Shown here: in pieces, positions 4,643-58,033 of the stretch
Layout of the letters: each line of letters opens with the position of its first letter
Position numbering within the stretch: position 1 is the first letter of the stretch
Assembly (NCBI GenBank): GCA_051294905.1
Contig: CM119378.1
Location: 10,230,001-10,294,000 of the forward strand
Length of the DNA stretch: 64,000 bases
Origin: Botryllus schlosseri
Lineage: Eukaryota
Direction: 5' to 3'
The notes under the pieces: model-generated
Databases searched by the model: none
Told to the model about the DNA's origin: nothing
What the model saw: the letters and a program-made list of their open reading frames with translations, nothing else
Made by a program: the position numbers and the translations under genes

Positions 4643-5194
4643 TTTAACGCAGAGCGAACGTTTGTAGTTGTATAATTGTATATCTGACTCCAGAAAGGTT
4701 GCGTTTACGATTCGCTGCGTGTTTCTTCTTCCGTTCGACGACCGGCGTAACCACGCCGTACGACCTTGTTGGCTGACGTACCACGAAGCCTGTCTCTTGC
4801 ACACGAATTCGATGGATCACACTGACGAATATATTTTGTTTCTGTCACCACGACTTGTAATTTTATTGCCAATCACGTATGGCTCAAAATGCGATCTATA
4901 TTCCCTCAATCAGCGAAATACTTATGAATGTCTATCGACTTCCGAATCATCGAAATAACCATGAATGTATATCGACTTCCGAATCAGCTAATAATCATGA
5001 ATGTATATGTACGCTGTATTACATCCGTATATATATCATAGCCACAACAGATTACGTGCACCAAACATCGTACGATTTATTTCCCTTATCTATAATTCAC
5101 ACGACAAATATACGACTCACGAAGGTCTTATCGGGTTTACCAACTCCTTATTGCATATAATTAAAATGGCGTTATACCAATATACTTCGTTAAA
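4643..5194 (-). repeat. 3' LTR of the minus-strand element
   Basis: Copy of 35524-36075 with termini TTTAACG...CGTTAAA. Preceded on the minus strand by a polypurine tract. Confidence 0.9.
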
Positions 5195-7932: not shown

Positions 7933-8367
7933 ACTGTCAACCCGTCCAGCGGGAACAGCAACCATTCCTACCAAATCCGTGTTGTCCGTTCCGCGTCTAC
8001 GTAACAACAGAGGGCTTATGGCAATCCGATAACCATTCTACAGCGACCATCTCCAAATAAGACGCACCGTTCCGTGACCACAACCGGGCCTACACGAGAC
8101 TAACATTTTGGTACAAGTGAAGTAAAAACCGTAACGAATGACGGGATGTAATGGGAACACTGAGTGTAGGTATTGAAGTGTTGCACTATATACGTGAAAA
8201 TGTTGCACATGAATGGGAAATTAGAGGGTGCATTGAGTAGTACGACCCATATGGAACAGGTGTATTATAAGCCCTAGGAGGTTAAAACGTGGATTTGCCA
8301 TATCCAGAAATGACGACTGGAGTGGGCGCTTGCGAGCAAACCTTCAAACCTAAAAACGTAACATTTT

Positions 8368-9393
8368 GTGCAGAGGCATGCCGGCAACATTATACGCTCG
8401 GTTAAAAGAGAAATATCATACAAATACGTGTATCTTTGCCGTCTTAATATTACAGAAGCATCGGGAGTACCTCACAACGTTCTGCGCCTGGCCCAATCTG
8501 GAATTCTGCTCAACAATCGGGATTGTATCATGTTCTTGAGGAGTCAGGGATTATTGGCTCAGCAAATGGATTGTCAAAGGTGCACAGCCCCGATGGTCGA
8601 GGAAAGGACGCGTACTATGGATGACGGGTGGAGGTTTTGTTGTCGGGATAAAGACTGCCGCACGACGAGTACTATACGAAAATGGTCACTATTCAACAAC
8701 AGCAAGGTTGGACTCCCTGAATTACTTATAATATCATATTTTTGGGCACATGATAGTGTCCAGAATCACATCTCGCACGAATCCGAAATTAGCCCTCGAT
8801 CAATCGTGGTATGGTCGGGCCATTTGCGACGGGTGTGCGCAGCAGATGTACGACGCCATAAGAAGAAACTGGGAGGCTATCAAAGAACAGTGGTAGTGGA
8901 TGAATCCCATCTAGCTAAGCGCCGCCGTGGCGTGGCTGGAAGCCAGGCCGCTAGAAAGGCTATTTGGGTTGTAGGTGGCACTGACCGGACGACGGGAGAA
9001 ATGTTCGCGGAAATAACGGCAGACAGGACTGCAGAGGTCATGAAACGTATCCTAGTCGAAAATATAGCCAGAGGCTCTACCATAGTGACAGATTGTTACC
9101 CGTCCTACAATGGAATAGAACAGTGGGGCCAGGATTACCAACACAGATCCGTGGATCATTCAATTGGCTTTATTTCTCCATCCTTTATTCATTCTAATGA
9201 CCAGGAGGCACAATGGAGTAGCTTAAAATACCACTTGAGGCGCTCAAGAGGTTTGGCAAGGCATCTCCTGCAAGAGTACGTTGATGAATGGTTATATAAA
9301 CGGCGATATGGCAGGAGTAATGTATTTGCGGCTTTGTTAAAGTCCATACGTGAAGATCCGCGGTTTGACGTGCGGCAAGCTACTAGCACATAG
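8368..9393 (+). CDS. Merlin (IS1595/ISXO2-like) DDE transposase
   Basis: N-terminal CQRC...CCRDKDC zinc finger. Motifs VVVDESHL, IWVVGG, STIVTDCYPSY, HRSVDHS, HSNDQEAQWSSLK, LQEYVDEWLYKRRY. DDE triad intact. True start uncertain: GTG start, possible acceptor at 8454-8455. Confidence 0.92.
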   Translation: MQRHAGNIIRSVKREISYKYVYLCRLNITEASGVPHNVLRLAQSGILLNNRDCIMFLRSQGLLAQQMDCQRCTAPMVEERTRTMDDGWRFCCRDKDCRTTSTIRKWSLFNNSKVGLPELLIISYFWAHDSVQNHISHESEISPRSIVVWSGHLRRVCAADVRRHKKKLGGYQRTVVVDESHLAKRRRGVAGSQAARKAIWVVGGTDRTTGEMFAEITADRTAEVMKRILVENIARGSTIVTDCYPSYNGIEQWGQDYQHRSVDHSIGFISPSFIHSNDQEAQWSSLKYHLRRSRGLARHLLQEYVDEWLYKRRYGRSNVFAALLKSIREDPRFDVRQATST

Positions 9394-9679
9394 AACCGGA
9401 TATCCGGACCTTAATAGGCCAAACCTGCTTGCACAAACAAACACTGGACTGACGTATGACGTCAACTTTTCTCACTTCCCGAAAATATGTCACATATTGC
9501 CTAGTTAGAATGTTTACATCTCATGACTAAACAATTAAATTAACTGATCGATCAAGAATATCTGTAGAACCAAGATGAGACGGGTCTAACCCTGTTCCTA
9601 CTTTTACAGACTGGTAGAATTACATATATTGTCAAATTTGATAATTAATGAATTTTCCTGACGTACCTGTGCCTGCACA

Positions 9680-12070
9680 ATGGTCAGCTTTTCTTTTATT
9701 GGTCATTACGGTTGTATGCTGCTTCATACATCTGCTTTGTTACTGTCTTGGGCGGAAGGAACGACAATATCTGCAAGCAATATAACGACCACATCAAGCA
9801 CCATACCCAACTATGAGGACAGAGCTAGAACAATAACTCAAGCCCAGTTTGGAAAATTACCCAGAGAGTTTCCTAAAGATTGGGCTAAATTGGAGTCGTC
9901 ACCGTGGGAGTTTATTTCGCTAGCAAAGTGCTGGGAACTACGAAACAAAACCCACAATTTTTCAAACCCGGGGATATTTTTCTCATCGACGTTTGGTTAT
10001 GTCAAGGCTGAGAGGGTCACGTTTCAAGAATACATGTATCCAACCGGACATTATTGGGATGACATAAATGCGTTTGAAAACACATGCACATGTAGGCGTC
10101 AAAAGGCATATATCACCCCAGATTTGGACTTAAAAGCCCTGGAGTCAGAGAGAACATATATAGTGCCTACCGGAAATGACTTCCGGTTAGCATGGCGATG
10201 GAAAATCGATGACTCAACCGTAAGGGGGTGGAATCCTCGAGGGCTATTTCAAATAGCCATCATGAAGTACAAACTAAAGGCCTTAAAAATGTTTGCCACA
10301 TATTCAAGTGTTAAAATAAACTGTGTCACCGATACGGTGGCGAATGAAGAAATAATGAAGGAAAGGAATGTCTACAATGATACTTCTACAGATCTGGTAG
10401 ACTGTGTTCGCTTGCTACAAATTCTGCGTTGCACTACCTGCTCTTTTCGCGGATTGGTCATTGCCTATCGACCCCATCCTAACAAGATTATCATTCAGGA
10501 AGAAGACGAAACTAGAAATTCAAGGACGTCATTGAACATTGAAATGGATTTTACTCCGGGTATACACAACTATCACCCTTCTACGCCCGTATGGTCAAAT
10601 GCCATAGTCGGGGACAAACCAACGTTACCAGAAGAGATAGTTTGGGTTTTTCCCTCCTACCCCAACAAGTACGGAACGAACTACAGGGATTCACAGATAC
10701 CTACAAAAATTGCTGGAGGACTGCCGATATACCGGCTGTATCCTTCGTTACTAAAAGAAGATCAACGATGTGTCAGACGAGTACAAGGAAACAAGGCAAT
10801 CTGTAAAGATCCTGTGGGAAGTTTGCATATGAAACTGGCCTATTGGGACCAAGTGATATATGATTCTCAGGCCAATCTAAAAAGATACCCTGGGAAACCG
10901 CTGGTCGTATTAGGAGGTCGCAAAACTGATTTGGAAACTAAGGATCCTAATCTTCCAGGAGGAAAGGGGAGACATAAGAGACTCTTTTTTTCATTGTTTG
11001 TACTGGCTTTTTCAACTATCCTAAGCTTGGCAATCACTTCTAACCTTGAAAGCATGATAAACCGCAACATGGACGACTTGACGTATCAAATGAACGCGAG
11101 ATTTACTAAAATTGAAAGCGATCTGAAAACAGTGGCAGACGGATTGAATGACCTCTCGCTCATAGGAGTAGCTCGAGCTCAAAAGCTCAACGAATTGATT
11201 GTAACTAATCTACGTAAGGGGGCGGTAACTGAGGCAAGACTTCAAACTATCACAAATATGATTTGGAACAACCGAAATATGATAATCTCTCAGGTAGATA
11301 GCCATTTGTCCACAATACAGACCGTTCAAGAAATGTCGATTGCCGAACTTTCCCTTAATCAATTAGTCATGCAACAACTACAGAACCTAACGGCTAAACC
11401 CCTATTCGATAAAAACAAAGCTTATGCCGTACGAATAAAGTCAGGCATCCTAAGCCTACGTGAAATAGCTGAAAAAATTATCAAATTGAAGGATGAATAT
11501 GTAAATGTTTCTCAAAGCCAAGCGTTGAAACTGCAAGCCACGCGGAGAGAAATAGAAGCCATTGACAACCAGGCGGAAGTCGAAATAGAACGTTGGCAAA
11601 AAGAGGTGAACCATAGTGTTTACATCAACACTACAAATTTAGAACATGATAATGTCAGCTTTGCTCATTTGAATCGTATAATCGGGGAAGAGTTCTTTGA
11701 CGATTTCGGCGACGCAGTAAAAAGTGCCGCTAACGGGACTGGTGTAATTTTAAAGTCTTTAGCTTCTGGGGCTTCTGATATTATTTCACAAGGAATCGAG
11801 GGTATTACTGGCATCTTTGGGTCAGGATTGGGGGCCATATTCAAACCCCTCATAACACCAATTATCATCATTGCTGTAATTCTAGTCACGTTATTTCTGA
11901 TTGTTAAATTATACCCAGTTTGTTTTCCAAAAGAGAAGAGATCCAGAAATACTATAAGACAGCGTAACAACAAATCGGAAATGGAAGTTTACGTGACCTT
12001 AATGAATCCATCAAAAACTGCGCGGCGAATTGTAAAGAAACCCGATAGGTTTGGAAATCTCGGCTACTGA
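9680..12070 (+). CDS. env: Envelope-like class I fusion glycoprotein, 796 aa (env1)
   Basis: Signal peptide and Cys-containing ectodomain. Furin site RHKR (10970-10981) is followed by hydrophobic LFFSLFVLAFSTILSLAI, long heptad repeats, a Gly-rich membrane-proximal segment, TM IIIIAVILVTLFLIV and a basic tail. Several N-X-S/T sites. Confidence 0.8.
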   Translation: MVSFSFIGHYGCMLLHTSALLLSWAEGTTISASNITTTSSTIPNYEDRARTITQAQFGKLPREFPKDWAKLESSPWEFISLAKCWELRNKTHNFSNPGIFFSSTFGYVKAERVTFQEYMYPTGHYWDDINAFENTCTCRRQKAYITPDLDLKALESERTYIVPTGNDFRLAWRWKIDDSTVRGWNPRGLFQIAIMKYKLKALKMFATYSSVKINCVTDTVANEEIMKERNVYNDTSTDLVDCVRLLQILRCTTCSFRGLVIAYRPHPNKIIIQEEDETRNSRTSLNIEMDFTPGIHNYHPSTPVWSNAIVGDKPTLPEEIVWVFPSYPNKYGTNYRDSQIPTKIAGGLPIYRLYPSLLKEDQRCVRRVQGNKAICKDPVGSLHMKLAYWDQVIYDSQANLKRYPGKPLVVLGGRKTDLETKDPNLPGGKGRHKRLFFSLFVLAFSTILSLAITSNLESMINRNMDDLTYQMNARFTKIESDLKTVADGLNDLSLIGVARAQKLNELIVTNLRKGAVTEARLQTITNMIWNNRNMIISQVDSHLSTIQTVQEMSIAELSLNQLVMQQLQNLTAKPLFDKNKAYAVRIKSGILSLREIAEKIIKLKDEYVNVSQSQALKLQATRREIEAIDNQAEVEIERWQKEVNHSVYINTTNLEHDNVSFAHLNRIIGEEFFDDFGDAVKSAANGTGVILKSLASGASDIISQGIEGITGIFGSGLGAIFKPLITPIIIIAVILVTLFLIVKLYPVCFPKEKRSRNTIRQRNNKSEMEVYVTLMNPSKTARRIVKKPDRFGNLGY

Positions 12071-13183
12071 TATCGTGCCCGGCTTATACTTAAAGGTAGG
12101 GCCACGGCTAACTCTCGTATTTCAAGTGTATGTAAATTTGTATGTGTGTTTGAGATTTATGGACTGTGTGTTGTCAATAATGATCCGGCCCTGAGTAAAA
12201 GTAAAATTGTTAGTTTTAACATTTGAGTCCCAAACTAAACCTATTGGTGTTAGTCGCAACCGTGCTCGTCACTAACATATATATACACTTGCAGGGTACT
12301 GAAGCGCTAAAAAACGTCAGCCTATACAGCCAAATTGTAAATTTAAGTATATAAAATACACTTGAGGTAATCTATTCAGGTATTCCATGCAGCTGTATCA
12401 ACTAATTTAGTACTATCCCGACATACATACTTGCAGAATACTTTGCCAACGAGAAGTACGGTCCCCAAAATACAAGATTTTACTTTCCCTGGTCATTTCG
12501 ACCTAATTCACAGGTTTCCTCAATAGGATTTGAGTATGGCTGCTGCTCTAATGGATGGCTAAGGCCTGCTGAAAGGGTGGAGTACAATCAAATTTTCATG
12601 AAAATTCGGCGTTGCGTAATTGGACAACGAGATCGCTAGCTCACGTAGGATTGTTGACAATGTTGGCCTTCCGCCTACAACGCTCTAGTTTAGCCCAGTC
12701 TAGCTGGATCGCGTATCTTAGGTTCTAGCAGAACTCTACACATGTGTTCTGACTGCTGAGAGTAGATATATGTGTAAGTTAACCTACACCAACCGCGATA
12801 ACTGAACGATTTAAAATTACCAACGTTTACGGGGATTGCAAGTTTATTCTATTATTGGAATTTTTTAAATGTTTTCATATGGATAAGATGGTGTTTCCCC
12901 ATGCCCCCGTACGACCCCGGTCGTGCCGGGCGCGACCTATATCTATCATCGTTGTTACCATACTTGTTAATTCCTAAGAGTTATCGCTGGCTGGGTGCGG
13001 TCATTTTGAAGTATGAGTTTCTTGCAGACAAAATTTACCTGACCCCACATTGAGTGTCGTTGTGATTCAAATCGAACCCTTTGTAATACGAGTCTCAAAG
13101 AAGCCATAAGAGATGATGTTCATTATTTAATTAATGTACAACATTGTTTACTCGGTTGTTCAGATCTAAGATTTAAATATAGG

Positions 13184-16100
13184 ATGCCAAATTTCCTATG
13201 GGCATTGCTGCTGTGCTGTGTTGGTGTGATAAATCATGCGTATGCATCGGAACTACTCCCTTTGTCAGCTGTAAATTCGGAGCCAGTGGTGGAATTTAAT
13301 CACTCAGGATGGAATCGAGTTAGTGAGTTTGTAGGTATTAAACGAGTGCCGTTAAGTCAGATTTTCCCAAAAATTGGAATTGACTGGTCACGCGCAAATG
13401 GACGTTATCCCGTGTATGCTAATACAATAGAATTTGGTGCCGTAAAGGCCCCCTCACAAAGGTTGTTCAGAATCCTGTCTCCAAGAGCCGGCAAATATTG
13501 GCGATCTCCAAAACAATTTGAGAGGGAATGCTTATGTGTCCGAAATAATTCAAAAATATTACCAGAATTGACGCCCGGAAGCATAAAACAGAACATAACA
13601 TACCGACGTGGTACTGGTGTTGATCTAATACATGTCTGGCGATGGGTGATAGGCGAAGATGAACTCCCTATATCATTTACTACCCTACGAATACTGACGG
13701 TCTATAAGGCGTTGGTCATCCACTTTCTAAGCCAATACCTAGAGGTGAATGCCTACTGCTCAAGGCCCAGTCCAACGGGAGGAAACTCACGTTGGAAGAT
13801 TAGGGAAAACGGGTTCACTTATTGTGATAATAGGGGCAGACGAACCCGTAGAATTATTTGTACGCGTTGTAGAATCACTGGTAGTCGGGGAATTGCAAAT
13901 CTAGCTCACAGGAACTTTGTCGTTCATGAAAAAAGTAGGCAACAAACCACTCTAAGAATCCTATGGCCCGACGATATTCCTATGCCTACTCTGAATAAAC
14001 ACATAGTATGGCTACAGACGAGAGGGGTGAATTACAGGGTCGGCTCGCCGATACTGGAAAACCTGAACTTGAGAGTTTATAGATCATTTCCGGCGTTGGG
14101 AAAAAATAGCCCCTTTTGTCTGAGGAAACTTCAAAAACCGGAATGCGAATCTCCTGTTGGCAGTTTTGATACCGCGCTTGCGTTTGACTCGGTCTCTTAC
14201 GATGTGGCGGGAAATCAGCCCATATACCCAAATTTTAATGAAGCCATAATTCATCCGCTAAGAGCTGATATCCGAGTTTCATGCTCACGACCTCGGCCAG
14301 ACAGATATTTTATGATATGGTCACCGTTCAAGGATCAAATAAGCAAATCACTGCATGGACTAAGCCATGTTTTGCAAGTAACTGCCTCAAGGTATCTCGC
14401 TGAGGCCAAACTGCTACTCAGACAGATGGCAGCTCCCATGAAAATTTTAAGAAATGAACTATTACGATTACAGGACAAATATGCAACTACCAATGAAGTA
14501 AATAGGTTTCAGAACAGTGTCAATCAAACTCGACATAGGATAGGACGAAATCTTAACCGACAAGTGTTGGATTTACTGATGAGTGCGACAGCCGCAAATC
14601 TATTATTGAATGCCAAAATGGCAAACCTTACGCGTTTTGACCCCAATACAGTTTACAAAGCAGTAATTTGTCGAGGGGCCCTAATTTATTCAGTTTACGG
14701 GTATCGTAAAAATGAGAGCAATCCCCATACCTCTAGTCCACAGACAACAGATCTGGTGACCGAAATTGTCACTCACAGCCCAGCAAATACCCCTATAATC
14801 GCTACCAGATCTACAAAAATGCATGTAGAGACTTACGATGAAGCCCAGTCTACCTACGAACCTACCCTCATTGCCTCTAAAATCTCTCAGTCTCACAGTA
14901 ATGGTAATATCGCAACGACAAAGGTGACTCCGGATGGGGGCCAAATTCAGAAAAGTACCACCCGTACATCCGAGATGTCCACAATTACTAGTGGATATAA
15001 GCCCTACTCTCCTGCTATCCAGCATGAACTGATCATCTCTGACTCAAGAGCCGCGAAATATATTACTAATAGTGCTAGCGAAACACCCGATAATATTCAG
15101 TGGCTCGACTATGTAAGAAATGACACCGCCCGTGCTATAGTTACGTCTGAAAAACCCACAACTATTAATGCGAGCATGTCTAAATCTGGTTCCGTTACGC
15201 GCAGAAACGTTGGTAGAAGTAGCATAGCGTATACTCGCACAAAAAATGCGTCTGGTATTGATATCGGCTTGACTTCAAATACAAGTGAAACAGTATCATC
15301 GGTTGTGACCGACCCTACTTCTGGATTCCCGTCTTTATCAAAAACTGTTATGGACAAGACGGCTGCTGACCCTTTGACTTGGCCCACGAATACCTTTTCA
15401 CCCACGGAAATGGTGAAACTAGGTAGTCTGTCAACTCGGCACTCCGGAACAAAACCCATGACCAATATTAGGAATATACTTAATCCATAAACCACACCTA
15501 GCATTCGAACTTCTAAAGTAGACTCTACAGTCGCAACCATAAGATCTGAAAACTCCGCAGGGGAAATCCAATCGATGGTAACACCCCCTGGACGGGCAGC
15601 TGTTACTAATTCGAATAATAATACGCTGGCCACCTCAATAAGCACAAGTGTGGAAGACACTACATCGTACTTTCCAAATGAAAATAGTGACAGTGGACAT
15701 ATAGTGCAAGTAAATATATCCGCAAGAACCTTAAGTAACAACACGTTTGAGCAGGTACAGAACTTGATGCAGAAACTCTACCGAACAACTACAGCGGCGA
15801 TGTTATTATCAAGCAAATTACACTCGAACGCGTCCCCGCGAGAATCAGCTACTAGTACCCAGCCTAAATCGGCAAATAACATCACCAGCGAATCATTTGG
15901 GTATGAGACAACCGACCCTTTGGAAAAGCTGAATAGCCGAAATTTACGAACGGAGGCCGCAGGTAAGACTTTGAATATTTACAAAATACGCAACAATACC
16001 CCACCAGCATGGGTTAACAAAGTGCCTTCCGGTCTATTAAATAGGAAACAAACGAAAGATGATGAAATTATTATGCCCAGGTCAACTACAATGTCAGTGT

Positions 16101-16939
16101 CGGATATAAAGAGTAACGATTATGGTACGACCCTCGCTGAGCAAACAACTACTCCCGATTCGGTAGCTACACCTGATAACAGAGATACCTCAACAATTCT
16201 AAACCCACGGTCGCCTCTAATAGAGTCTTTAGCTTATTTCAGCCGTGACCAAAATACTACAACGGTTTCAAAATATTTACCTCTCGGCGCAAGCACCCAG
16301 TGGAACGAGGTGACTCATACGCAGGTTGGAATCACCTCTGAAGTGAATTTGTCAGGTTATTCGAGGCTACATAAAATTGAGATTCCGAAGGTTTCGCGTT
16401 TGGTAGTTAGTTCCCACGAAAAATCCCCCATATTGAGTAGTTCACCTGCCGTCCATACGACATTGCGTGATAATGCCTCGAATCTGGACCCGAGCACAAA
16501 CCTTGTTCGACCAGCTAATTCAGAAAGAACAACGATTCCTGTCGCCCTTAACAACATCACTATTACGTACGAACCCACAATAATACCTTTGGATATCATA
16601 TCTGACAAAGTTATAAATTCAAATAAAACGTTACCGCGCGAGAGTGAAATGGATAATCCTGCTAACAATAGTACGTTATATTTGATCAGGCTACGTGAAC
16701 TATATCGAATCGAAAGTGGATATGTATTAGGGACGGAATTCCGTGTTGAAAATTTGAAAAATGTAAACTTAAAACGACATTTCTATAAAATTATTGTGTC
16801 CATAGCAATAATTTTTGCCATAGCTATGGCTTTATTAACCTACCGCCTATATAAATATCGGGTTTCGGCCAACTACCTAAAAGGAGTTATTAGACGGAAC
16901 AACGCGGAAAATTGGTTGGAGGCAATAGAACACCACTAG
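13184..16939 (+). CDS. env1 paralogue with a mucin-like stalk (env2), interrupted by one in-frame TAA at 15488-15490
   Basis: ORFs 13184-15490 and 15575-16939 share a frame and the 28 codons between them are open. Matches to env1 include FERECLC/FENTCTC, WRWVI/WRWKI and CESPVGS/CKDPVGS. Long S/T-rich region, then TM IIVSIAIIFAIAMALLTY. Confidence 0.75.
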
Positions 16940-22900: not shown

Positions 22901-25013
22901 AGAGCCACCTACTAATTTGGCTAAGCACAAGAGTTGTCATGACTCAAGATCTATTGTCGCACAAAGATGGTGATAATTTTTGAAACCGATGTGATTCCCT
23001 ATTATTAGAAATACCCGCCAGCTTGTAACACTATTATGGTGTTCCCTCACTTTAGGGATCCTATACAAAAACACCCCATAATACTAAGTACACCCCGTAG
23101 CCAGGGTGAACAATAAACCTATATGTTGGTATATGCCTTACTTTTCGTGTTTAAATTCTGTTAATGATCCCTATTTGTAGCAACGCGATATGGCGTTAGA
23201 TACCGGAAACAACGCCGAGCTACCCTGAATAAATGTTTGAATTTATGTGACACTTCCTCTATTTGAGACGAAACATTTTCTGTCAGCGCCCGAATGAATT
23301 AACCTTTCATATCTATAAATGTGATTTAAGGCGCACATGTGATATTATTGATTGGCTAATAATGAGTTATGTACTACTCTAATTGTTTGCAGTTGGTATC
23401 GAGCATTTTGTCATCATAATACTTGTAGTGACCAGCCTATGTTTAGTCCGACTGCACACTAACCTATTTGTTCGTAGAGATGCTATTTTTACTGGATTGA
23501 GTGTAATCATAATGCCCTTTATTACCCCCACTCCCAAAGTGAGGCAGCGCACTTTGATTAACAGACGCTGTGCCTCGTCGCCATTTGAAAAATAAATTAT
23601 TTTGTTTGAGGAAAAACCATGCTCATATTCTCTACTGCCACGACACTAGGGAATAGCATGGCTTCATGGCATCCTCCGCTAATTAAAAGAAGGGGAGGGG
23701 TAACTTCGTTGTACATATTTTGTGGTATCCGTCAGAGAATGAAAATGATATAAGAAAAATGAATAAAAAAAAAATAAATTTTTCTATCATGTATTTTAAT
23801 TGAAAAAAATAATGCTTGTTTTGAGTGCAAACCTGAAGCTAGCTAACCCTAAAAATAACTACTTGTATATTATTAATCGAGAGTTATAATGCATATACCC
23901 TTAGTACTGCAAATGTACTACTTAATGCATAGCAATGGTGTAATATATGTACTGTACACGGAATGCTTGGAATTCGCTTGTTTTGTGATATATCAGTGTA
24001 CTAACAAAAATGAAATAATGATGATATGAGTCAAATATGTAGTTATGTATATATTAATTAAATCGACACGGTCTCTTTAGGATTCCGATAAGGTCCTCCC
24101 CCCCTAAAAGCTAAGAAAATAACACCATAATGTCTAGGTTATGAAGAAGGCTATAGTAACTGAAACGATTAGGGGTGATCTATGAATCACCTAGCTACCC
24201 ATATGAAGCTGCTAATACGGAAAAAGCCGTTGCGAAAGCGACAGATATGTAACCACCCTATCTTGTTTGTGTTAAATATTATAATTATAAATCTGTAACC
24301 TTACGCATAGAGACAATTCGATGAAAGTAATGTTGAATAATACTTGGTGAAGAATAATATCACAAGTAGTGCGCCATATTTGGCACGATAACTGTGTTCA
24401 TTGAGCTAAGACGGTGACATTCTTGGCACTGGAGTCGAATCTATATGCGTAATTACAGAGTATTGGGCTATATCCTCCCGCCCCTATATAAGAGTGGATG
24501 GACCCCGAAATCGAAAATCAAATATAAAAGTATATAAGTATTATGCCTAGCAGGGAATAGCTTGCCCTGGTCATAATTTAAAAAAATAATCTTAAATACC
24601 ATCAAAATTTAATGATTGGAAAAGAGTGGGCAGTTTCGGATGGTTGATTGGAATGAGCTCGCCATAACTTTGGTATATTTGCTTGACTGGATAATTTCAT
24701 TTGCGTCTTTATGTAGTGCGGCGCAGCCATTCCATCACCAGTACGGAACTGAAACGTATGTTTTGCGATACAAATGTGTCGAGTATAGAGTGATGCTTAT
24801 ATGGAATAGTCGTATGCATGCCAGTTTTACGATCATGCTGCCATTAAATGGGGCCACCATTTTTCGTGCATGCGAACTTTTGCAGTAAGTGTTGCCGTTA
24901 TTTTATATTAGTGTATGCATTTTATATCTATGTGTCATGTGGTGCCCACACGAATTGTATAGCAGCTGCTGTGAACAATTGTTACCCATGTAGGCAGCAT
25001 GGATGCCAAATTC

Positions 25014-25560: not shown

Positions 25561-25960
25561 GGCAGGAAAGGCCATCACGTCTATTGTGAAAACAAACCTT
25601 GGAGAATTATTTTGATTTTAGATCGTGCATGATGATAAATAGGTTAACTTTTGGTTTTTTATCAGTATGTGTAATGTGCATAGAGAAGCCCTATTGTTAT
25701 CTGCACGACCTTATTGGAGTATTTGGTTGTATTAAGGTTATAGGCTACCGTATAAGAGTTATAATAGTCATCTGGGCCTTGAACGGTCATTGCGATAGCT
25801 GCTGCAATTACAAAGACTTCAATCAAAGATCGACTGCGCCGAAAAGAGTGGGGGTCACACAAAGACATACATCAAGTGAACTTTTGCATCCGCTGAGGTA
25901 TATGAACTCAGTGTAGGTTACTTGGAGGCCACAAAGACCTCAAGCTGCACTATAAACTAC
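25561..25960 (+). repeat. LTR-like segment (R/U5) of gag-pol copy 1; left boundary undefined
   Basis: Homologous to the reverse complement of 47868-48302 (GGCAGGAAAGGCC, AAACCTTGGAG, GAGTATTTGGTTGTATTAAG, AGCTGCACT). Ends directly before a PBS. Confidence 0.65.
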
Positions 25961-25975
25961 TGGAGGTCCCAACCG
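25961..25975 (+). promoter_or_regulatory. Primer-binding site, tRNA-Gln-like
   Basis: TGGAGGTCCCA(A)CCG compared with the complement of the tRNA-Gln(UUG) 3' end, TGGAGGTCCCACCG. Confidence 0.65.
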
Positions 25976-26216: not shown

Positions 26217-29200
26217 ATGAAGAAATTCTTCCGAAAGAAAAAATCGCCGGAGGCGGTTGCTGAGCTTGAGCAGGGTATACAACTGTTCAAAGCTACGCAA
26301 AGGCGTCACGAAAACGTAAGAGACCAGGAGAAAAGACTAACTCAAAGCGTCGCTGAACAGACGAAGCTCCTGCAGGACGTCAAAGCAGTTTTGCCAGTAG
26401 CGGTAAAAGAATTGGACAAAGCCAAAAAAGAGGTTACACAGGCCCAAGCAGATTTGAAAGCAGTCAGCGATGCCACAGCTAAAGTTAGTGGTAAAGTGTC
26501 CACTGATGTACTGAATCAAGTCTTGAAGGCCGAGTTTGAGTTGGGGAGAGAACACACTAGAGCAGTCGGGGATAAGCCCCCCCGACCATCTCCCGCTCTC
26601 GCAATATTACCTGCCACGCTACCACCGTCATACGATCAACAATCTGGACGAGGCACCGATAGGGCGACGCTCCGACCTAAACTCCAGGTTACCAAAGGCC
26701 TAGATTGTCATACAGTAACGGCAGTCTATCCCACTCTACCCGGATCAAAATCTGGAGATATGGTACGTAAGACGGCCCGAATATCATCGGCTCGTCGCAC
26801 CGGAACATCACAACAGGCCGGTCCTGCACTTCGACTGACTACGACGCCCGGCCAGAGACTGTCGGACGCAATGGAACAGATGCGATCGAGGTCCCTGGAC
26901 AGGTGTGAGCGAGACAATATGCCCGCTCCTGCTCCTAAAAATGGCCCTGGATCAGACGCCGAAGTGCGATTTGATGACGATTACCTACCCAGATACACCG
27001 AACCGTCAAGGTTTTTGCAGGCGGGGGTAGCCAGGAATGGCCGGGACAATGTACGACTGACTTTCGACGCGCTAGGAAAGCGTCGGGCGCGTAGTGAACC
27101 TGATGAGACAAGGCATGTGGTTTTCGAAGAAGCTGGCCGGGTCTCCCAAGGAGGAGAGCCAAAATGTGAGGGCCCCTCTCCAAATGACTTGCCACGACAG
27201 CATGAACGCCGACCAGATGAGCTGTTTGACGCGCTTAGGGGTCCAGGTTATTTTGATGAAGATTATGCGCCTTCTCAATTCACAACAGGACCACCTAGAT
27301 TTCAATCTACCCCTGATGACATTGATGGGAGCCCCAATCGCCCACAACGACAATTCGGCGGCCCGTATGAGGAGCTTGTTGGCAACCAAGCTCATGCACA
27401 TACAGTACATGTTGCCGAAAGACCTGCCAGACTTCAGACTGAGAAAGAAATGATGCAGCTCATGATGGACCCTGATGACATGCCGCTCGTCAAATGGATG
27501 GCGAATACAATGGAGCGCATTGAGCATGGGGAGGGTGATACTAACGAGGATATCATATTGTCAAATGCGATGCAGAAAAAGCTGAAACAAGCTGGACGCC
27601 AAAAACAAGCCAGGCAATTGGGAAATTTCTTCAATACCAATTCTGGTAAACCCAGCTGGGAGTCTGTCATGCGATCTCTATCATTGTCCAACCCACAAGG
27701 ATTGGCGAACAATGAGAAAATCATAAATGAGTTTCGAAATAACTACTCCTGGGACGACGAACCACTACCACTGCTCAACAGCACGCTAAAGCAGCTTGAA
27801 ATTAATATGGGTGATTGTATCACGAAAAGTCCGGATGGACTGCGCCTCTTCAGACACTTACGACGTCAACTCCCTCAGGCCCTTAGGATCTTAATCCGTG
27901 GGTATGAATATGGCTCTTGGAGAAATGTGGCTGAGGAATTGCAGATGTTCTGGAACACGGAATTTTTGGATGATCAAGAAGAGGGAAGATTCCCCCAGAA
28001 AGACAAACATAACAATAAGCGAAAAAATACTGATGCTATATCACCCCTACCACCAGTGCATATCTATAATGTGCAACCGGCGGGGCAGATAATGCCGAGT
28101 TATCCTACTCGACCAGTGCAAGCTGGTGCTGCGCCTACCATGATAAGTTCAGCCCCACCGCCCCCTCCACCACCCATGCCTGCCGGCAGGCCTCCCCAAT
28201 CTGCGCAAGCAACTGGACGTCAGCAATACTCGGCACAAAATCGTAATCCGCTGCCGCGACGAAATCCGGGTCGTACAGCCAAAACAAACCGTTTTCCTAA
28301 TGCCGTGATGGCTGGTGGAAACCCCTATCGAAGGAGTGCTGCACCCGGGAGGCAGACGGGATCGAGGGTCCTAGGAAGGTCGGGAAGACAGCCCGACGCG
28401 AGCAGAAACAACGGCCAGCGTCCACGAAACTCTCAAAACGTACGAACGACTCCGGGAATGCCAGCATCAGACCAGAGGGGACGCGGCCTACCGCAGACTC
28501 AAGATTCGGGCGTCGGGGTGGACCATTCGCAGCTAACGCCGTCCAACAGTCAAGAGGCGAGCCAGATTTCGAACACCCAAGGTGAGAGGTATAATTTCCT
28601 TGGCAACCCTAATATATTTGCGCCATTAGGGTTGTATTTACATCCCTCGCAGGGACAGGCCTTGTCGGTCTGTTATTATTGTAAATCGCCGGGGCATCAA
28701 TCTCGCAATTGCGTGGTAAAATTCATATTGTGGCTGAATGATCAGGTACTGACTAAAGATGATGTATTGGGCTGGATTATAAGAAAACGTGTTCGACCGG
28801 TGCCCGCCCATGTCAAAGAAACAACTGAACAAAATTGGCTTCCCTTTTTGGAGTCTAACCAACTACTGACAATACCCGATTTGGACCGGTATTTTGCGTC
28901 TCAGGGCTCTCCCTCGTTCATTGAGAGAACCACCCTATGTGAGGCTTATTATGACGATAGACCCAAAAATCGTGACAAGACTCATTGGCATAATAGAGAG
29001 CAATGGGGGCCACAAGGACCACCAAATATGGGGGGTCAGCCTGCTAATAATGCTAATACTGTCGCATGGACCCAACCTCAATATACCCCACCCCAATATC
29101 ACGAACCCCATTATCACCAACAATTCCAACCCAGTAATAACCCATACTGGACTGATGAGGAATTGCACCAGGGCTTGGTGCTGGCAAAAAACGCGGCGCT

Positions 29201-29243
29201 TCTTCGATATACGCCCCAGATCGAAACAGTGCTTCACATGTAA
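26217..29243 (+). CDS. gag: Gag polyprotein; the last ~16 codons are contributed by the inserted MITE
   Basis: Polybasic N-terminus, coiled coil, PPSY and YPTL motifs, capsid-like core conserved with copy 2, and CCHC knuckle CYYCKSPGHQSRNC (28671-28712). Confidence 0.85.
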   Translation: MKKFFRKKKSPEAVAELEQGIQLFKATQRRHENVRDQEKRLTQSVAEQTKLLQDVKAVLPVAVKELDKAKKEVTQAQADLKAVSDATAKVSGKVSTDVLNQVLKAEFELGREHTRAVGDKPPRPSPALAILPATLPPSYDQQSGRGTDRATLRPKLQVTKGLDCHTVTAVYPTLPGSKSGDMVRKTARISSARRTGTSQQAGPALRLTTTPGQRLSDAMEQMRSRSLDRCERDNMPAPAPKNGPGSDAEVRFDDDYLPRYTEPSRFLQAGVARNGRDNVRLTFDALGKRRARSEPDETRHVVFEEAGRVSQGGEPKCEGPSPNDLPRQHERRPDELFDALRGPGYFDEDYAPSQFTTGPPRFQSTPDDIDGSPNRPQRQFGGPYEELVGNQAHAHTVHVAERPARLQTEKEMMQLMMDPDDMPLVKWMANTMERIEHGEGDTNEDIILSNAMQKKLKQAGRQKQARQLGNFFNTNSGKPSWESVMRSLSLSNPQGLANNEKIINEFRNNYSWDDEPLPLLNSTLKQLEINMGDCITKSPDGLRLFRHLRRQLPQALRILIRGYEYGSWRNVAEELQMFWNTEFLDDQEEGRFPQKDKHNNKRKNTDAISPLPPVHIYNVQPAGQIMPSYPTRPVQAGAAPTMISSAPPPPPPPMPAGRPPQSAQATGRQQYSAQNRNPLPRRNPGRTAKTNRFPNAVMAGGNPYRRSAAPGRQTGSRVLGRSGRQPDASRNNGQRPRNSQNVRTTPGMPASDQRGRGLPQTQDSGVGVDHSQLTPSNSQEASQISNTQGERYNFLGNPNIFAPLGLYLHPSQGQALSVCYYCKSPGHQSRNCVVKFILWLNDQVLTKDDVLGWIIRKRVRPVPAHVKETTEQNWLPFLESNQLLTIPDLDRYFASQGSPSFIERTTLCEAYYDDRPKNRDKTHWHNREQWGPQGPPNMGGQPANNANTVAWTQPQYTPPQYHEPHYHQQFQPSNNPYWTDEELHQGLVLAKNAALLRYTPQIETVLHM
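29186..29192 (+). promoter_or_regulatory. -1 ribosomal frameshift slippery site A AAA AAC
   Basis: After removing the MITE, gag reads LAKNAWGR* and pol continues in the -1 frame as KKRLGALMDPVNQ. Confidence 0.75.
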
Positions 29244-30075
29244 CCAGCAAGTGTTTCCCATGAACACGATCAAATTTTATAAACGTCAAAATAAATTGTT
29301 TTTTGCCTGTGGAGAGACGGATATTAGGGTTGGATGTGGGTTAGGCATATCAGGGTTGGGGGTAGGTGGATATTAGGGTTGTGTTAGGGTATTCCGGGGG
29401 AAGGGGGTTATTAGGGTTGGAGGTGGGTTAGGGTCAAAGTTGGTGTTAGGGTATCCCAAGATTAGGGTTGGGGATATTATGGTCGGGAGAGTGTGGAATA
29501 TCGTGTCCTGCACTCCAAACCTATTCTTGGGTTACCCTTACCCTAACACAGCTCTAGCCCCAACCCAGCTCTAACCATAACTCTAAACCCATCCCCTAAC
29601 CCTAATATCCCCCCTCCCCAACCCTAATATCCCTATTTCCTAACCCTAACACAGCTCTAACCCTAACTCTAAACCCATCCCTTAAACCTAATATCCCCCC
29701 TCCCCAACCCTAATATCCCCCTCTCCTCCAACCCTAATATCCCCATTTCCTAACCCTAACACAGCTCTAACCCTAACCCTAATTACCCCCTCTCCTCCAA
29801 CCCTAATATCCCCCTTTCCCAACCCTAATATCCATCATTCCTCGAACCCTAATATCCCCCCTCTCCAACTCTAATATCCCCCTCTACTCAACCCTAAAAT
29901 CCACCCTCCCCAGTCCTAATATCCCCCTCTCCTCCAACCATAATACCCCCCTTCCACAACAAAGACAAAAAACAATTTATTTTGACGTTTATAAATTTTA
30001 TTGTGTTCATGTGAAACATTTGTTGGTGTCATGGGGAGCACTGTTTCGATCTGGGGCGTATATCGAAGAAGCGCC
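29195..30075. mobile_element. Merlin-type MITE filled with telomere-like repeats
   Basis: Perfect 39-bp TIR GGCGCTTCTTCGATATACGCCCCAGATCGAAACAGTGCT, imperfect to ~125 bp. 8-bp TSD AAAAACGC (29187-29194, 30076-30083). Degenerate TTAGGG array in the left arm and CCCTAA array in the right arm. Confidence 0.85.
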
Positions 30076-30083
30076 AAAAACGC

Positions 30084-33000
30084 TTGGGGGCGCTGATGGA
30101 TCCGGTAAATCAGTTGCCCGATTTAGTGTTACCCCATTATACGAAAACTATACATAACTCTGAATTACCCATATTTACCTTTTTTGATTTGCCGGACAAA
30201 ATGCCGCAACCCGATTTTAGGGACTTATTTGGCGGACAATTATTGTATTTTACAGACACAAAAACAGGTACACAATTTCTTGCGGATACAGGAAGTGTTC
30301 CTAACCTGATAACCCAAGATGCCGTTAAAGCTACCTACCCAGAAAGCTGGACTGAAAGACAACCACTCGATATGAAATTACGCGGCATAGGAGGATCATC
30401 CAGTGTCGACTTTGTCGTCATCATCAAGCTGGACAACCTACCGGTTCCGTTTGCAACTGGTGAAGGAGTCCCGTTAAACATTATCGGACTGAAATGGATT
30501 GAGCAAGTTCAACGGCTACCCTCAGTAGCGACAGAATTGAAGGATCCCACTACAGTGAATTATGAACTATCATTGTCCGTGTATTCGGACACGGCAAAAA
30601 CCATAGCTGGGAGCAGTACTTGCAACGCTGCTACTGGTGATGGGTCGGTGGAAGCTGCAACGTTACATAGCGTCGAGACTGGAAGCCCAGCTGGCGCCCC
30701 TCGGGACCATAGATGTCCCTGTCTCTCGGAAGGATTTTGCGCCAAGTGTGGAGAAACCACGGATACAAAATTAAGTCGGGTGAGCGCTGTGACCCCGAAA
30801 TCCTTACGTGCTGAGCGCGGAAGCCCCACTAGCACCTCTCAGGAACGACATGTTCAAGAGATTCCTGAAAACTACGGCCACTGCATTCGCCACGATAGAA
30901 GAGTGGGAATCGTTCACGACGGCTCCATGGCCGCAGCAGTTGTGCCGCAAACCGAGAAGATAGCATTGAAAGCAGCTGTCGACATCCACACTACAAATTT
31001 TGTGGATGGAGAAGAGTCTGGAGGCCATATGCACGCCTCTCCAGAAAAAGGGCCCCCGGTGGGCGTTGAAACCGCCGGCGTGAAGTTGGATGCGGGCACG
31101 CAGCCCCTTCAGAGGCAGAAAAAATCGAGTGTGGAAGCCCCACTGATTACTGATACCCTCGCTCTCTCTCCACCGGCATCAAAACCGCGCCACGGCCTCT
31201 ATAGACATGGTCGTGGCCCGATAAAAACGTATGAACTGTATGATGGAACTGATAAGAAAGTGAAGACAGAGTTGGAACGGCTATGCAGCCAAGCGGTTGA
31301 ACTTGCCAAATCTGCATATAAACCTCCAGACCTCACATGTCCGGATAATACAATTATACCGGACCAGGTTTGGAGAGAGATTTACGAGCCGTACGCGAAC
31401 GAACTTGAAGACCTGCGAGGTCATCTCAAAGCTCCACAAGTTATGGATTATAAATGTGACATTGAACTTAAGGACCCCTCTACCAAACCATTTGTGTCAG
31501 GTCCGTATAACCTGAAGGGGAAGGACCAGGCTAAGGCATTGCAAGAAGCCGTAGAAAACTTCCTGGATTTGGGAGTCATTGAACAGGGGTTTGCCCAATG
31601 GAAACTGGCCATTTTCGTGGTACCCCAGAAAATGAATGAACGGCAAAAACAAGAGGACGGATGGAAACAAGCGTGGAGAGTTGTACAAAATCTTCAACCA
31701 TTGAACGCTGCCATCAAGTCTATAGAAGTTCCCCCTCCCCTTGTACCTGACGTAAAGCAGCACGCGCAAGGGCGAGAGGTACTTTCCCTGCTGGACTTGA
31801 AGAAGGCCTATTTCCACATGGATATGACGGAAAGGTCTAAGCAGTATGTAGGCATTGCTGTGAAGGGAATGCATATACGATGGCGCAAGATGCCGATGGG
31901 GCTCCGCATTTCGCTGGCGTTTTGGATGTCCAATATGCAGAAATGCGTGGTCACGCCTATCACAGAGAGTTACCGGAAGTGCATGAAAGAACATGGTCGT
32001 ATGGACGAAGCTACAGCGACGCCCATCGAGGCCTACATCGATGATATATTTCTAAGTACGAAGACAGTCGACGATCACCTGGTGCTATTACGACTGGTGT
32101 TTGAACAACTGGCTAACATGAAACTGACTGTAAGCATCAATAAGTGTTTCTTTGGTAAACGGCGGGTAAACCTGCTGGGTGCAACCGTAACGGGTAAGGA
32201 AATCGAAGTTCAGCCCGAACGAGTGCGAGCACTCAAAGAACTTGCGCCACCCCACAATATTTACGAACTCCGGGGGTGGATTGGTGCACTTCGATATATC
32301 TCAGAACATATACCGGAGTTGAGCCTAAAACTGGCTAAATTTGACGCTCTCACTGGAAAAGTTCCAGCGACTCAGGGCAGAATAACACCGTTACTATGGA
32401 CTAAAGAATTGCTACATGATTTCAAGACAGCGCAAGCCTTGCTAAACGATACAAGGGTGCTGTATCATCTCAACCCAGATCTTCCCTTGTATGTCGAAAC
32501 AGATGCATCTGATGTGGGTTTTGGCTCGGTGATATTTCAAACAGAAGTGGGATGTACCCCACCATTCGACAAGGTGTACACTATCGCTTTTTACAGCCAA
32601 AAATGGACTACACCCACGGCGAAAGTGTACGACCCCTGTACAAAAGAACTAAAGGCTCTGAAGGATTCTGTGGAAAAATGGCAATCGATGTTACGCGCAC
32701 TACCGTTCACGATCATCACAGACAACATGGGCGTGTTTGGGCTGTTGAAAAGAATGACAGACAATGCCAAGAACCCAAGCCCTAAACCACTGATTCAACG
32801 GTGGCTCAATCAGTTATCGGGTTTTCAAATCGAAAAGGTGATACACTTGAGTACCTCACAAGTGTTTACCTCCGACGGCCTTTCCCGCTCTTACTGGATG
32901 GAGATGGCTGCGGGAGAAGATGACCCCGGAGTATGGACGGCTCGTCCTTCAAGCGAAAACACCGAGGGACACACCATCAACAGCACACGAGATCGCGAAA

Positions 33001-33530
33001 GTGTGCAAAGATTTTTGATACGTCACTGTAGACACGAAGTATGTGATAACAGTGAAAACGGTATTCATCCCTGGGAAAACGTACAACAACTCCTGAAAGA
33101 GAAGCTGGGAAGGGATCTCCCGATGGCCACGCTAAAACGGATCATGCGGGACAGCACCAGAGCGGTAGTCTCGGATAAAGGGTTGGCGGCCGCACAGGGA
33201 CATACCGTGGGAGAACCCCCTCATTATGAACAATATTTAAATAATGACAAATTGTATCATATGACTACACGTACCAGAGCCATACAAATCATGAATAGCG
33301 AACTCAGACGTATGGGTAGGAGGTATGTACACCTCAGCATACAGGAGCCAAGCTATAAATATATTCGGGGAGCAGCTTTAGAAATGGACTCATGCGATCT
33401 CCGAAAACTGGGATTAACTCTATTGCAATCACCCAATTCGGACGTGGTTTTGTGTGAAGGCCCTATCCCAAATGCACATATACGTCTCGCGCACGAAATC
33501 GTGAGTCGAACACGGTCAAACAGCGCATAA
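30084..33530 (+). CDS. pol: Pol: aspartic protease, reverse transcriptase, Ty3/Gypsy-type RNase H and an unknown C-terminal domain; no integrase
   Basis: Protease FLADTGS and IIGLKWI. RT LLDLKKAYFHM, MPMGL, AYIDDIFL, KCFFG. RNase H TDASDVG, KELKAL, ITDN, SDGLSR. No HHCC or DDE motif downstream. Confidence 0.92.
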   Translation: MGALMDPVNQLPDLVLPHYTKTIHNSELPIFTFFDLPDKMPQPDFRDLFGGQLLYFTDTKTGTQFLADTGSVPNLITQDAVKATYPESWTERQPLDMKLRGIGGSSSVDFVVIIKLDNLPVPFATGEGVPLNIIGLKWIEQVQRLPSVATELKDPTTVNYELSLSVYSDTAKTIAGSSTCNAATGDGSVEAATLHSVETGSPAGAPRDHRCPCLSEGFCAKCGETTDTKLSRVSAVTPKSLRAERGSPTSTSQERHVQEIPENYGHCIRHDRRVGIVHDGSMAAAVVPQTEKIALKAAVDIHTTNFVDGEESGGHMHASPEKGPPVGVETAGVKLDAGTQPLQRQKKSSVEAPLITDTLALSPPASKPRHGLYRHGRGPIKTYELYDGTDKKVKTELERLCSQAVELAKSAYKPPDLTCPDNTIIPDQVWREIYEPYANELEDLRGHLKAPQVMDYKCDIELKDPSTKPFVSGPYNLKGKDQAKALQEAVENFLDLGVIEQGFAQWKLAIFVVPQKMNERQKQEDGWKQAWRVVQNLQPLNAAIKSIEVPPPLVPDVKQHAQGREVLSLLDLKKAYFHMDMTERSKQYVGIAVKGMHIRWRKMPMGLRISLAFWMSNMQKCVVTPITESYRKCMKEHGRMDEATATPIEAYIDDIFLSTKTVDDHLVLLRLVFEQLANMKLTVSINKCFFGKRRVNLLGATVTGKEIEVQPERVRALKELAPPHNIYELRGWIGALRYISEHIPELSLKLAKFDALTGKVPATQGRITPLLWTKELLHDFKTAQALLNDTRVLYHLNPDLPLYVETDASDVGFGSVIFQTEVGCTPPFDKVYTIAFYSQKWTTPTAKVYDPCTKELKALKDSVEKWQSMLRALPFTIITDNMGVFGLLKRMTDNAKNPSPKPLIQRWLNQLSGFQIEKVIHLSTSQVFTSDGLSRSYWMEMAAGEDDPGVWTARPSSENTEGHTINSTRDRESVQRFLIRHCRHEVCDNSENGIHPWENVQQLLKEKLGRDLPMATLKRIMRDSTRAVVSDKGLAAAQGHTVGEPPHYEQYLNNDKLYHMTTRTRAIQIMNSELRRMGRRYVHLSIQEPSYKYIRGAALEMDSCDLRKLGLTLLQSPNSDVVLCEGPIPNAHIRLAHEIVSRTRSNSA

Positions 33531-33995
33531 AGTCATGTACAGAAAGACACGTAAAAAATAAAATAAAAAAAAATAAAAAAAAAAAATATTTTTTTTTTGT
33601 TTAAACCTGCGTTAAATGGTTACTAATAGTACCGTGAAAAGTGGTTGTTTGTTGCATTTGATTCTATATGGAATTCATGTATTATAAGCCCTAATATGTA
33701 TACGTAATTTCGATGTTCATGGGGAAACATTTAAGATTAGATAAAAGATACATGTGAAACACTAAATAGATAGTGAATCACATGTACGAGTAAAGGACGG
33801 CGTCTGGTACAGGAGTTCCAACATTTTGATGTTAGCATTTATTACTACAACGCATACTTCAGCAATGAGCTTCGGTGACCCCACCTTACATTCTACAACG
33901 GGGAGTCACAACATGATGCAGCAATCCTGCATTTACACAGCGTATTAATGCACAAGGCACAATTTTCCATCACGCGTATCTATATTCTACGCGAT

Positions 33996-35507: not shown

Positions 35508-35522
35508 ACGTCGGGTTCACCA
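35508..35522 (-). promoter_or_regulatory. Primer-binding site, tRNA-Trp
   Basis: Minus strand TGGTGAACCCGACGT vs the tRNA-Trp 3' complement TGGTGACCCCGACGT (14/15). One nucleotide from the 5' LTR. Confidence 0.85.
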
Positions 35523-35523: not shown

Positions 35524-36075
35524 TTTAACGCAGAGCGAACGTTTGTAGTTGTATAATTGTATATCTGACTCCAGAAAGGTTGCGTTTACGATTCGCTGCG
35601 TGTTTCTTCTTCCGTTCGACGACCGGCGTAACCACGCCGTACGACCTTGTTGGCTGACGTATCACGAAGCCTGTCTCTTGCACACGAATTCGATGGATCA
35701 CACTGACGAACATATTTTGTTTCTGTCTCCACGACTTGTAATTTTATTGCCAATCACGTATGGCTCAAAATGCGATCTATATTCCCTCAATCAGCGAAAT
35801 ACTTATGAATGTCTATCGACTTCCGAATCATCGAAATAACCATGAATGTATATCGACTTCCGAATCAGCTAATAATCATGAATGTATATGTACGCTGTAT
35901 TACATCCGTATATATATCATAGCCACAAGAGATTACGTGCACCAAACATCGTACGATTTATTTCCCTTATCTATAATTCACACGACAAATATACGACTCA
36001 CGAAGGTCTTATTGGGTTTACCAACTCCTTATTGAATATAATTAAAATGGCGTTATACCAATATACTTCGTTAAA
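35524..36075 (-). repeat. 5' LTR of the minus-strand element
   Basis: 552-bp copy of 4643-5194, adjacent to the PBS. Confidence 0.9.
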
Positions 36076-47537: not shown

Positions 47538-47550
47538 AGTAGCCTACTCT

Positions 47551-47820: not shown

Positions 47821-47849
47821 CGATTAGTCAACGTCTTAACACCGGAAGT

Positions 47850-47867
47850 TCCCCGTACTGGCCACCA
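47850..47867 (-). promoter_or_regulatory. Primer-binding site, tRNA-Ile
   Basis: Minus strand TGGTGGCCAGTACGGGGA, an 18-nt complement of a tRNA-Ile(AAU) 3' end. Confidence 0.85.
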
Positions 47868-47871
47868 ATTT

Positions 47872-58000: not shown

Positions 58001-58033
58001 ATGTGTATTTTTGCAGAATATACTTAAAAATAT

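Follow-up and report, generated by a model that had tools for sequence, protein, structure and literature searches.

In a 64,000-nucleotide stretch of the Botryllus schlosseri genome (assembly GCA_051294905.1, contig CM119378.1, positions 10,230,001 to 10,294,000 of the forward strand; hereafter the window, numbered from its first letter), we identified a Merlin transposase gene that is almost certainly the integration enzyme of a whole 25.7-kb unit, in which it is accompanied by env genes, gag and a pol coding for a reverse transcriptase (RT) and an RNase H (RH). A preliminary description of this DNA had proposed that an intact transposase belonged to a cassette rather than to a stand-alone Merlin insertion, and that it had been recruited in place of a retroviral integrase. 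The cassette is borne out by terminal inverted repeats (TIRs) and a target-site duplication (TSD) that bracket the entire unit. Recruitment gains support from a pol without integrase and from the insertion signature of Merlin on 32 of the 34 copies tested at both ends; from these sequences we strongly infer that Merlin functionally replaces the integrase.

The element spans positions 8110 to 33819, starts with GG, ends with CC and is flanked on both sides by AACATTTT. Between its ends lie, in this order, Merlin, env1, an env2-like gene, 9 kb devoid of long open reading frames (ORFs), gag and pol, with the following features:

8102..8109, no strand: left 8-bp TSD AACATTTT, abutting the GG end
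8110..8133, plus strand: left end, a GG-starting imperfect TIR matching the right end at 13 of 24 positions
8362..9393, plus strand: Merlin/IS1595-type DDE transposase frame with an N-terminal C4 zinc finger and a clade-specific VDH; a phase-1 splice acceptor ends at 8455
9680..12070, plus strand: env1, with signal peptide, basic cleavage site RHKR, hydrophobic peptide, long helical region and C-terminal membrane span
13043..16939, plus strand: env2-like glycoprotein with a Ser/Thr-rich stalk and a C-terminal membrane span; in-frame stop at 15488-15490 in the window copy
23685..23700, plus strand: purine run, a candidate plus-strand primer
25713..25736, plus strand: DNA copy of the chordate spliced leader, marking the RNA 5' end and the start of an R-like region
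25961..25975, plus strand: primer-binding site, 246 nt past the leader motif; 11 nt perfect to a host tRNA-like 3' end, then one extra base
26217..29243, plus strand: gag, with a capsid-like middle and a CCHC zinc knuckle; phase-1 donor AAG|GTGAG with its GT at 28582
29195..30075, no strand: 881-bp GG..CC foldback insertion with its own 8-bp TSD AAAAACGC, splitting the gag-pol junction; its arms resemble those of ordinary long-arm Merlins
30015..33530, plus strand: pol, with protease-like motif, RT, RNase H and Tpt1/KptA, and no integrase
33796..33819, minus strand: right end, an imperfect TIR ending in CC
33820..33827, no strand: right 8-bp TSD AACATTTT

The preliminary description had found neither GG-starting TIRs nor a TSD. 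This holds for the transposase alone, around which no GG..CC pair with an 8- or 9-bp TSD was found (left end sought in 7401-8420, right end in 9391-13100), but not for the larger unit, where the GG end at 8110 pairs with the CC end at 33819 and an 8-bp TSD. The ends are invisible locally because the TIR is imperfect and because the partner of the left end, itself about 250 bp upstream of the Merlin ORF, lies 24.4 kb past that ORF. Measured against the at least 24 bp expected of Merlin TIRs, the repeats are imperfect throughout, with 13 of 24 positions matching in the window and 16 to 18 in 19 other copies. The left terminal motif recurs once more about 140 bp inside the left end. The hallmarks of the Merlin superfamily are 5'-GG ends, an 8-bp TSD and TIRs of about 24 bp, and strongly imperfect TIRs are known in one Symbiodinium Merlin family (PMC8101967). 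A sister copy on C2, 92-96% identical to the window element and matching the window over 8105-33828, sits in an unrelated satellite and is bounded by GAAATCTT.

The transposase frame is open over 343 codons from stop to stop, and a Pfam domain search matched it to PF12762 (DDE_Tnp_IS1595, E 1.4e-10), as expected of an IS1595-type transposase with an intact DDE triad. Among the 30 best genomic relatives of the window Merlin there are 29 full frames, and in all of these the catalytic residues D180, D244 and E282 and the zinc-finger cysteines 71, 74, 94 and 99 (frame numbering) are invariant, confirming that the gene is intact. The reading of VDH in place of VNH is likewise correct (positions 9151-9159). 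The same VDH occurs in all 29 full frames and in four of five database relatives, whereas VNH is found in eight of eight ordinary long-arm Merlins and in three of three internal 'second' Merlins; VDH is a signature of the element-Merlin clade and no defect of the window copy. The element Merlins form a single clade separate from the ordinary Merlins of the same genome (support 97/95). The latter, which served as controls (L131-L138), carry long repeat-filled inverted arms, up to more than 1 kb, in four of eight cases, and the second type of Merlin, with VNH and its own start, is also met inside large copies of the element. The gap between the transposase stop and the env ATG at 9680 is indeed 286 bp, as first described.

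Genome searches returned at least 124 Merlin, 99 env and 92 RT matches, all lower bounds. When the flanks of the homologues were compared, the contexts proved not to be random: an env match lies directly downstream in 28 of the 30 best Merlin matches (read by eye, with 57 of 147 env candidates scored), and 24 of the 30 lie about 260-320 bp inside the conserved left end, the other six following pol directly. Exact 8-bp TSDs adjoin the GG..CC ends in the 32 copies mentioned above (by batch 2/2, 19/20, 1/1, 8/8 and 2/3), a tally that includes L010 and L013, which share flanks and may be one insertion. No TSD was found for L029/L117 or for one of the two distant copies, and the left end could be located in one of the six colinear copies. 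An empty site was recovered in reads and contigs for L192, where a joint skipping 8045 nucleotides (8037 + 8) leaves a single 8-mer; the flank is itself a repeat. Across the TSDs of 29 copies the target preference reads approximately R-A-W-W-T-T-T-N, with T at position 7 in 27. Pairing of left and right ends by proximity only gave 52 pairs, 4.7 to 81 kb in size, with none below 4.7 kb and none of the size of miniature inverted-repeat transposable elements. The one 12-kb defective copy that was mapped has lost its genes and kept the leader and the primer site. In L192, a derivative of 8.0 kb, both ends are present together with the leader, the primer site, gag and pol, and the TSD is exact, but Merlin and env are missing, which implies a transposase acting in trans or a later deletion. 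Large copies carry cargo genes (L096:323-1372, L096:4337-5851, L122:2495-3631) for LRR proteins and for an IAP with three BIR domains and a RING finger.

The ratio of nonsynonymous to synonymous substitution rates (dN/dS), a comparison the preliminary description had called for, was computed across the copies. The medians are 0.096 for Merlin (95 of 406 pairs in range), 0.16 for env (30 of 253) and 0.066 for RT-RH (12 of 45), the most constrained of the three, and no pair in range reaches 1 for any of them. Between the window copy and its sister the values are 0.11, 0.11 and 0.10, respectively. All three genes are under purifying selection.

The gene content departs from that of a single-gene DNA transposon without an RNA phase, as gag, RT, env, a primer site and a spliced leader all lie within the ends. 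By its anatomy env1 appears to be class I fusogen-like, and the R-x-K/R-R site is present in 25 of 27 long env frames. None of 20 env members matched a Pfam family past E 0.01, profile matches to PDB entries are weak leads only (E 0.095 and 0.32; Atlas scores below 0.9), and there are two database relatives. In pol, the protease-like motif was seen by eye, without a Pfam match, and no rve domain follows RT and RNase H. A Tpt1/KptA RNA 2'-phosphotransferase domain occupies the end of pol at 33072-33371, in the integrase's place, and in all four copies displayed (L091, L097, L087, L192) pol overlaps gag in the -1 frame at a slippery A AAA AAC heptamer. The window copy itself is damaged by the foldback at the gag-pol junction and by the stop in env2.

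The family very probably has an RNA phase. Upstream of gag, a 24-nt word is kept in all subfamilies examined while its flanks diverge, and this word is the chordate spliced leader (PMC3795323, Table 1). It stands in a single internal region resembling U3, R, U5 and a primer-binding site, which every autonomous-type copy checked possesses, with no terminal repeat. In 262 single-cell RNA reads, a loose end that we take to be the template-switch oligo begins exactly at the first base of the leader; these 90-nt reads, with a 29-nt loose part, would have about 60 nt on the element and so run past the leader. A second same-strand pile of reads lies just upstream of the leader, as expected if RNAs also end nearby, the reading of strands assuming the library type. 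Collected at 85% likeness, the reads come from members of the family.

Primer sites were found 246-289 nt past the leader in nine of ten loci and are, depending on the subfamily, exact complements of host tRNA-Ile(AAT), tRNA-Thr(AGT) or tRNA-Thr(CGT). That of the window matches over 11 nt the 3' end of a tRNA-like family of 48 host genes, which we take to be, probably, Gln. Between copies about 90% alike, six of the 15 positions in the primer site differ, and each form matches a tRNA of its own (p about 0.002, from a single switch event); an RT that copies its primer is expected to leave such a footprint.

The leader is not confined to this family. One role considered for the motif TGGAGTATTTGGTTGTATTAAG was that of a primer site, another that of a mark of non-autonomous copies; both were rejected, as the motif has 492 matches in the genome, precedes the ORFs of unrelated elements in 20 loci examined and is the spliced leader. 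Copies of it stand directly upstream of the ORFs of other, LINE-like retroelements (L170, L173, L174, L175, L180). In two small elements with two long terminal repeats (LTRs) each (L184, L188), whose 409-bp LTRs are 99-100% identical, the leader lies in each LTR at about +237, so that the U3-leader-R layout of the Merlin element recurs in a conventional one. At L185, L186 and L187 the leader is followed by GTAAGCATCG, in some cases beside or inside foldback repeats; these are probably spliced-leader RNA genes or pseudogenes.

The layout of the genes bears on how such an RNA could be made. The ends carry no LTRs, the longest word common to both being 16 nt, and the gene order is circularly permuted between subfamilies, from Merlin-env...gag-pol to gag-pol-Merlin-env. 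In the six colinear loci among the 30 best Merlins the right end comes after env2, and the TSD was confirmed on one such permuted copy. An RNA started at the leader of the window element would include Merlin and env only if the ends were joined, because it meets the right end after pol. The single internal leader and primer region, together with the permutation, would imply a circular double-stranded DNA made from a terminally redundant RNA, a trait of Caulimoviridae.

A possible splice points the same way. A phase-1 acceptor precedes Merlin at the same place in all 30 loci, and the 36 codons after it are constrained (ratio of nonsynonymous to synonymous polymorphism, pN/pS, 0.32). As these codons lack a Met in 18 of the 30, Merlin needs an exon further upstream. 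Across gag and pol, a single phase-1 donor is conserved in nine of nine copies, namely AAG|GTGAG upstream of the zinc knuckle. Apart from its three codons, no three successive columns among the 346 invariant ones of gag keep identical codons, and just seven of 203 fourfold-type columns are identical; the donor is absent from both distant copies whose Merlin has its own Met. The simplest reading of this pattern is that a spliced Gag-Merlin fusion would load the transposase into particles. In the layout of the window copy such a splice would require joined ends.

We regard as probable a cycle of excision to a circle, transcription, reverse transcription and integration by Merlin. The transposase would excise or copy out the element and join its right to its left end. 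Transcription of the circle would then start at the leader, to which RNA 5' ends map, run through gag and pol, cross the joined ends and continue through Merlin and env back into R. Splicing between the conserved gag donor and Merlin acceptor would yield a Gag-Merlin fusion packaged in the manner of an integrase. At the primer sites observed, RT primed by host tRNAs would produce new circular or end-joined DNA, and Merlin would cut at the ends and insert the unit with the 8-bp duplication that marks the copies. Env, to judge from its anatomy, may carry particles between cells. The Merlin ORF would thus be the integration enzyme of a family of enveloped reverse-transcribing elements of 5-80 kb, whose integrated form would be a circular genome opened at the transposase attachment site. 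One internal LTR-like region (a U3-like stretch, an R/U5 headed by the spliced leader and the primer site) would replace two terminal LTRs. More tentatively, and with somewhat less than an even chance of being right, the family may represent a new, order-level enveloped reverse-transcribing animal virus. Its Merlin-ended germline provirus would, prophage-like, excise as a circle, the joining of the ends acting as the replication switch for full-length RNA and for the Gag-transposase fusion.

Several observations weigh against this cycle. A head-to-tail junction of the ends has no match in the assembly (one pattern, exact matches only) and is absent from the displayed read joints (15 of 234). 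The Gag-Merlin splice was not observed, and all four database Merlin proteins (P0001-P0004) are without a Gag-like N-terminus. The RNA reads, drawn from about 3% of one run, were matched at 85% likeness on a sister copy, 52 of 3917 reaching at least 99%. The primer site of the window is imperfect and the closest sister has an insertion before its own, while no conserved polypurine tract was found, purine runs occurring in six of ten loci at varying distance. Among 92 left-end matches, 40 have no partner within 90 kb (a control expects 18 matches). One copy of 4.7 kb, which has both ends and is flanked by an exact TSD, has no leader or primer site and may reflect a later deletion or a DNA-only jump, and copies with nested insertions reach 40-80 kb, which is long for an RNA genome.

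The points on the missing junction, the 4.7-kb copy and the largest copies also favour a giant cut-and-paste Merlin transposon that moves as DNA only, carries a captured retroviral cassette as cargo and uses RT incidentally or for sub-genomic copying only; indeed, all insertion hallmarks are those of Merlin. We nevertheless consider this rather unlikely, as RT-RH is the most constrained gene, the primer sites are exactly complementary to host tRNAs, between which they switch, and the RNA 5' ends map to a host spliced leader that is fixed in the DNA. Furthermore, miniature pairs are lacking among the 52, and the mapped 12-kb defective copy, though its genes are lost, has retained leader and primer site. 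Reverse transcription could also proceed without an excised circle if two transcripts, from the leader to the right end and from the left end to R, were co-packaged and joined by template switching, with Merlin trimming the ends. Leader, primer sites and selection are explained equally well in this way, sense reads accumulate at the leader and also immediately before it, and the 16-nt word lies in both end regions of the window (8261 and 33678). However, that word is not conserved, seven other copies sharing 8-12 nt at unrelated positions, both terminal TIRs would need read-through transcription, and a gag donor reaching the Merlin acceptor is left unexplained in the Merlin-first layout, so that we judge it quite unlikely. 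The chance nesting of an ordinary Merlin beside a decayed LTR retrotransposon has an appeal in a locus that is a nest of insertions, including an LTR element and foldbacks; it is already refuted by dozens of dispersed copies that repeat the arrangement together with its ends and TSDs. The separate clade of the element Merlins and the lack of TIRs and TSD around the ORF alone also speak against it, and we give it practically no weight.

The surroundings of the element were also annotated. Direct repeats of 552 bp (4643-5194 and 35524-36075) belong to a separate, non-autonomous LTR element that was the target of the Merlin element's insertion. They were rejected as LTRs of the latter because their primer site and purine tract occupy the opposite strand, because 8108 is joined directly to about 33820 in sister copies, and because the C2 sister of the Merlin element is without them. 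This target element lies on the minus strand, has TTTAACG...CGTTAAA ends (not TG..CA), a 5-bp TSD TCAGT and a primer-like site at 35508-35522, presumably for tRNA-Trp. The genome has at least 40 related LTRs, of which several are paired at a spacing of about 2 kb. A foldback element with 177-bp arms (6677-7585) is inserted in the target element, upstream of the left end of the Merlin element. On the minus strand (44186-49995 and 54775-55124) lies a second, decayed member of the Merlin element family, with gag, pol, a leader near 48087-48120 and a left-end motif at 55124, between 422-bp inverted repeats (42383-42804 and 55125-55540). Finally, a Polinton-like block (56623-63310) includes a DNA polymerase B-like ORF over two frames, seen by eye, and a Pox_A32 packaging ATPase.

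Relatives beyond this genome were sought with RT-RH. About 15 database proteins are 36-67% identical to it, all others reaching at most 33%. In six of the relatives RT/RH is followed by Tpt1, and in one RH is followed by a dUTPase. An rve domain is absent from all 12 close relatives scanned, about half of them fragments that cannot show it, whereas it is present in five of five distant controls. The relatives fall in a clade of their own in the RT tree (11 rows, support 94; 10 rows, support 100; 58/62 rows, midpoint root, no labelled outgroups), and one cluster of relatives has 31 members, many on long contigs. The existence of integrase-less RT-RH-Tpt1 relatives at 41-53% identity suggests that this type of element extends beyond the present host. 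Metagenome scans with the window RT and P0007, which excluded viral contigs, gave no relatives. The best match of the RT among solved structures is PDB 8r0s, 'Enzymatic polyprotein', at 58.5 bits versus 54.2 for the next, a difference that does not place the RT; we take this entry to be the RT of cauliflower mosaic virus. No description of such an element was found in the literature searched, most subscription journals, Repbase and supplements lying outside it.

To our knowledge, LTR-type retroelements integrate by an rve integrase, by a tyrosine recombinase (DIRS) or never (pararetroviruses). The present family appears to use a third integration enzyme, derived from a DNA transposon of the cut-and-paste kind, and to have abandoned terminal LTRs, blurring the division between class I and class II elements; annotation tools based on LTRs would miss such elements. 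If the circle model is true, the family would correspond in animals to the pararetroviruses of plants, but with an integrase of its own, and would be a system by which nature inserts 5-80 kb of cargo precisely, captured host genes (IAP, LRR) included. The RNA phase can be tested directly through the internal spliced leader and the switching primer sites.

With Merlin/IS1595 elements the family shares the DDE_Tnp_IS1595 transposase, 5'-GG ends, the 8-bp TSD and, in imperfect form only, TIRs of about 24 bp (PMC8101967), a paper whose main text does not contain the words 'reverse transcriptase'; it differs from them by its 5-80 kb with gag, RT-RNase H, env, a tRNA primer site and a copy of the spliced leader. 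Teratorn, a fusion of piggyBac and an alloherpesvirus, similarly holds a virus-like genome within the TIRs and TSD of its own DDE transposase, and its excision as a circle has been proposed (PMC10175614); it is a DNA virus with piggyBac, whereas our element is retrovirus-like, with an RNA phase and Merlin. The env-bearing errantiviruses of the Ty3/gypsy group resemble it in their zinc-knuckle gag, PR-RT-RH order (PR, protease), tRNA primer site and fusion-protein-like env (PMC13524379). Unlike them, it has no rve integrase and no terminal LTRs, but GG..CC ends with an 8-bp TSD and a permuted gene order. As in Metaviridae, a tRNA primer-binding site lies upstream of gag; the PR-RT-RH-IN order (IN, integrase) of that family is broken by the lack of rve in the window pol, and its two terminal LTRs, TG..CA ends and 4-6 bp TSD are wanting. 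Caulimoviridae have a circular DNA replicated via a terminally redundant RNA. They are similar in their PR-RT-RH pol without integrase and in the circular DNA and terminally redundant RNA proposed here, and dissimilar in that our element has an animal host, env genes and a dedicated integration enzyme with precise ends and TSDs; in place of the plant host, movement protein and lack of an integration enzyme of that family, it shows a chordate leader, env and a DDE transposase. DIRS elements also combine an LTR-type RT with another enzyme in place of the integrase, in their case a tyrosine recombinase, while Troyka has LTRs, CG..CG ends and 3-bp TSDs, none of which is found in our element, and complete Kuafuorterviruses carry two LTRs (PMC12440569, PMC11673190). 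The nearest concepts to the element are Teratorn, DIRS and the pararetroviruses, and it is neither a Troyka nor a Kuafuortervirus.

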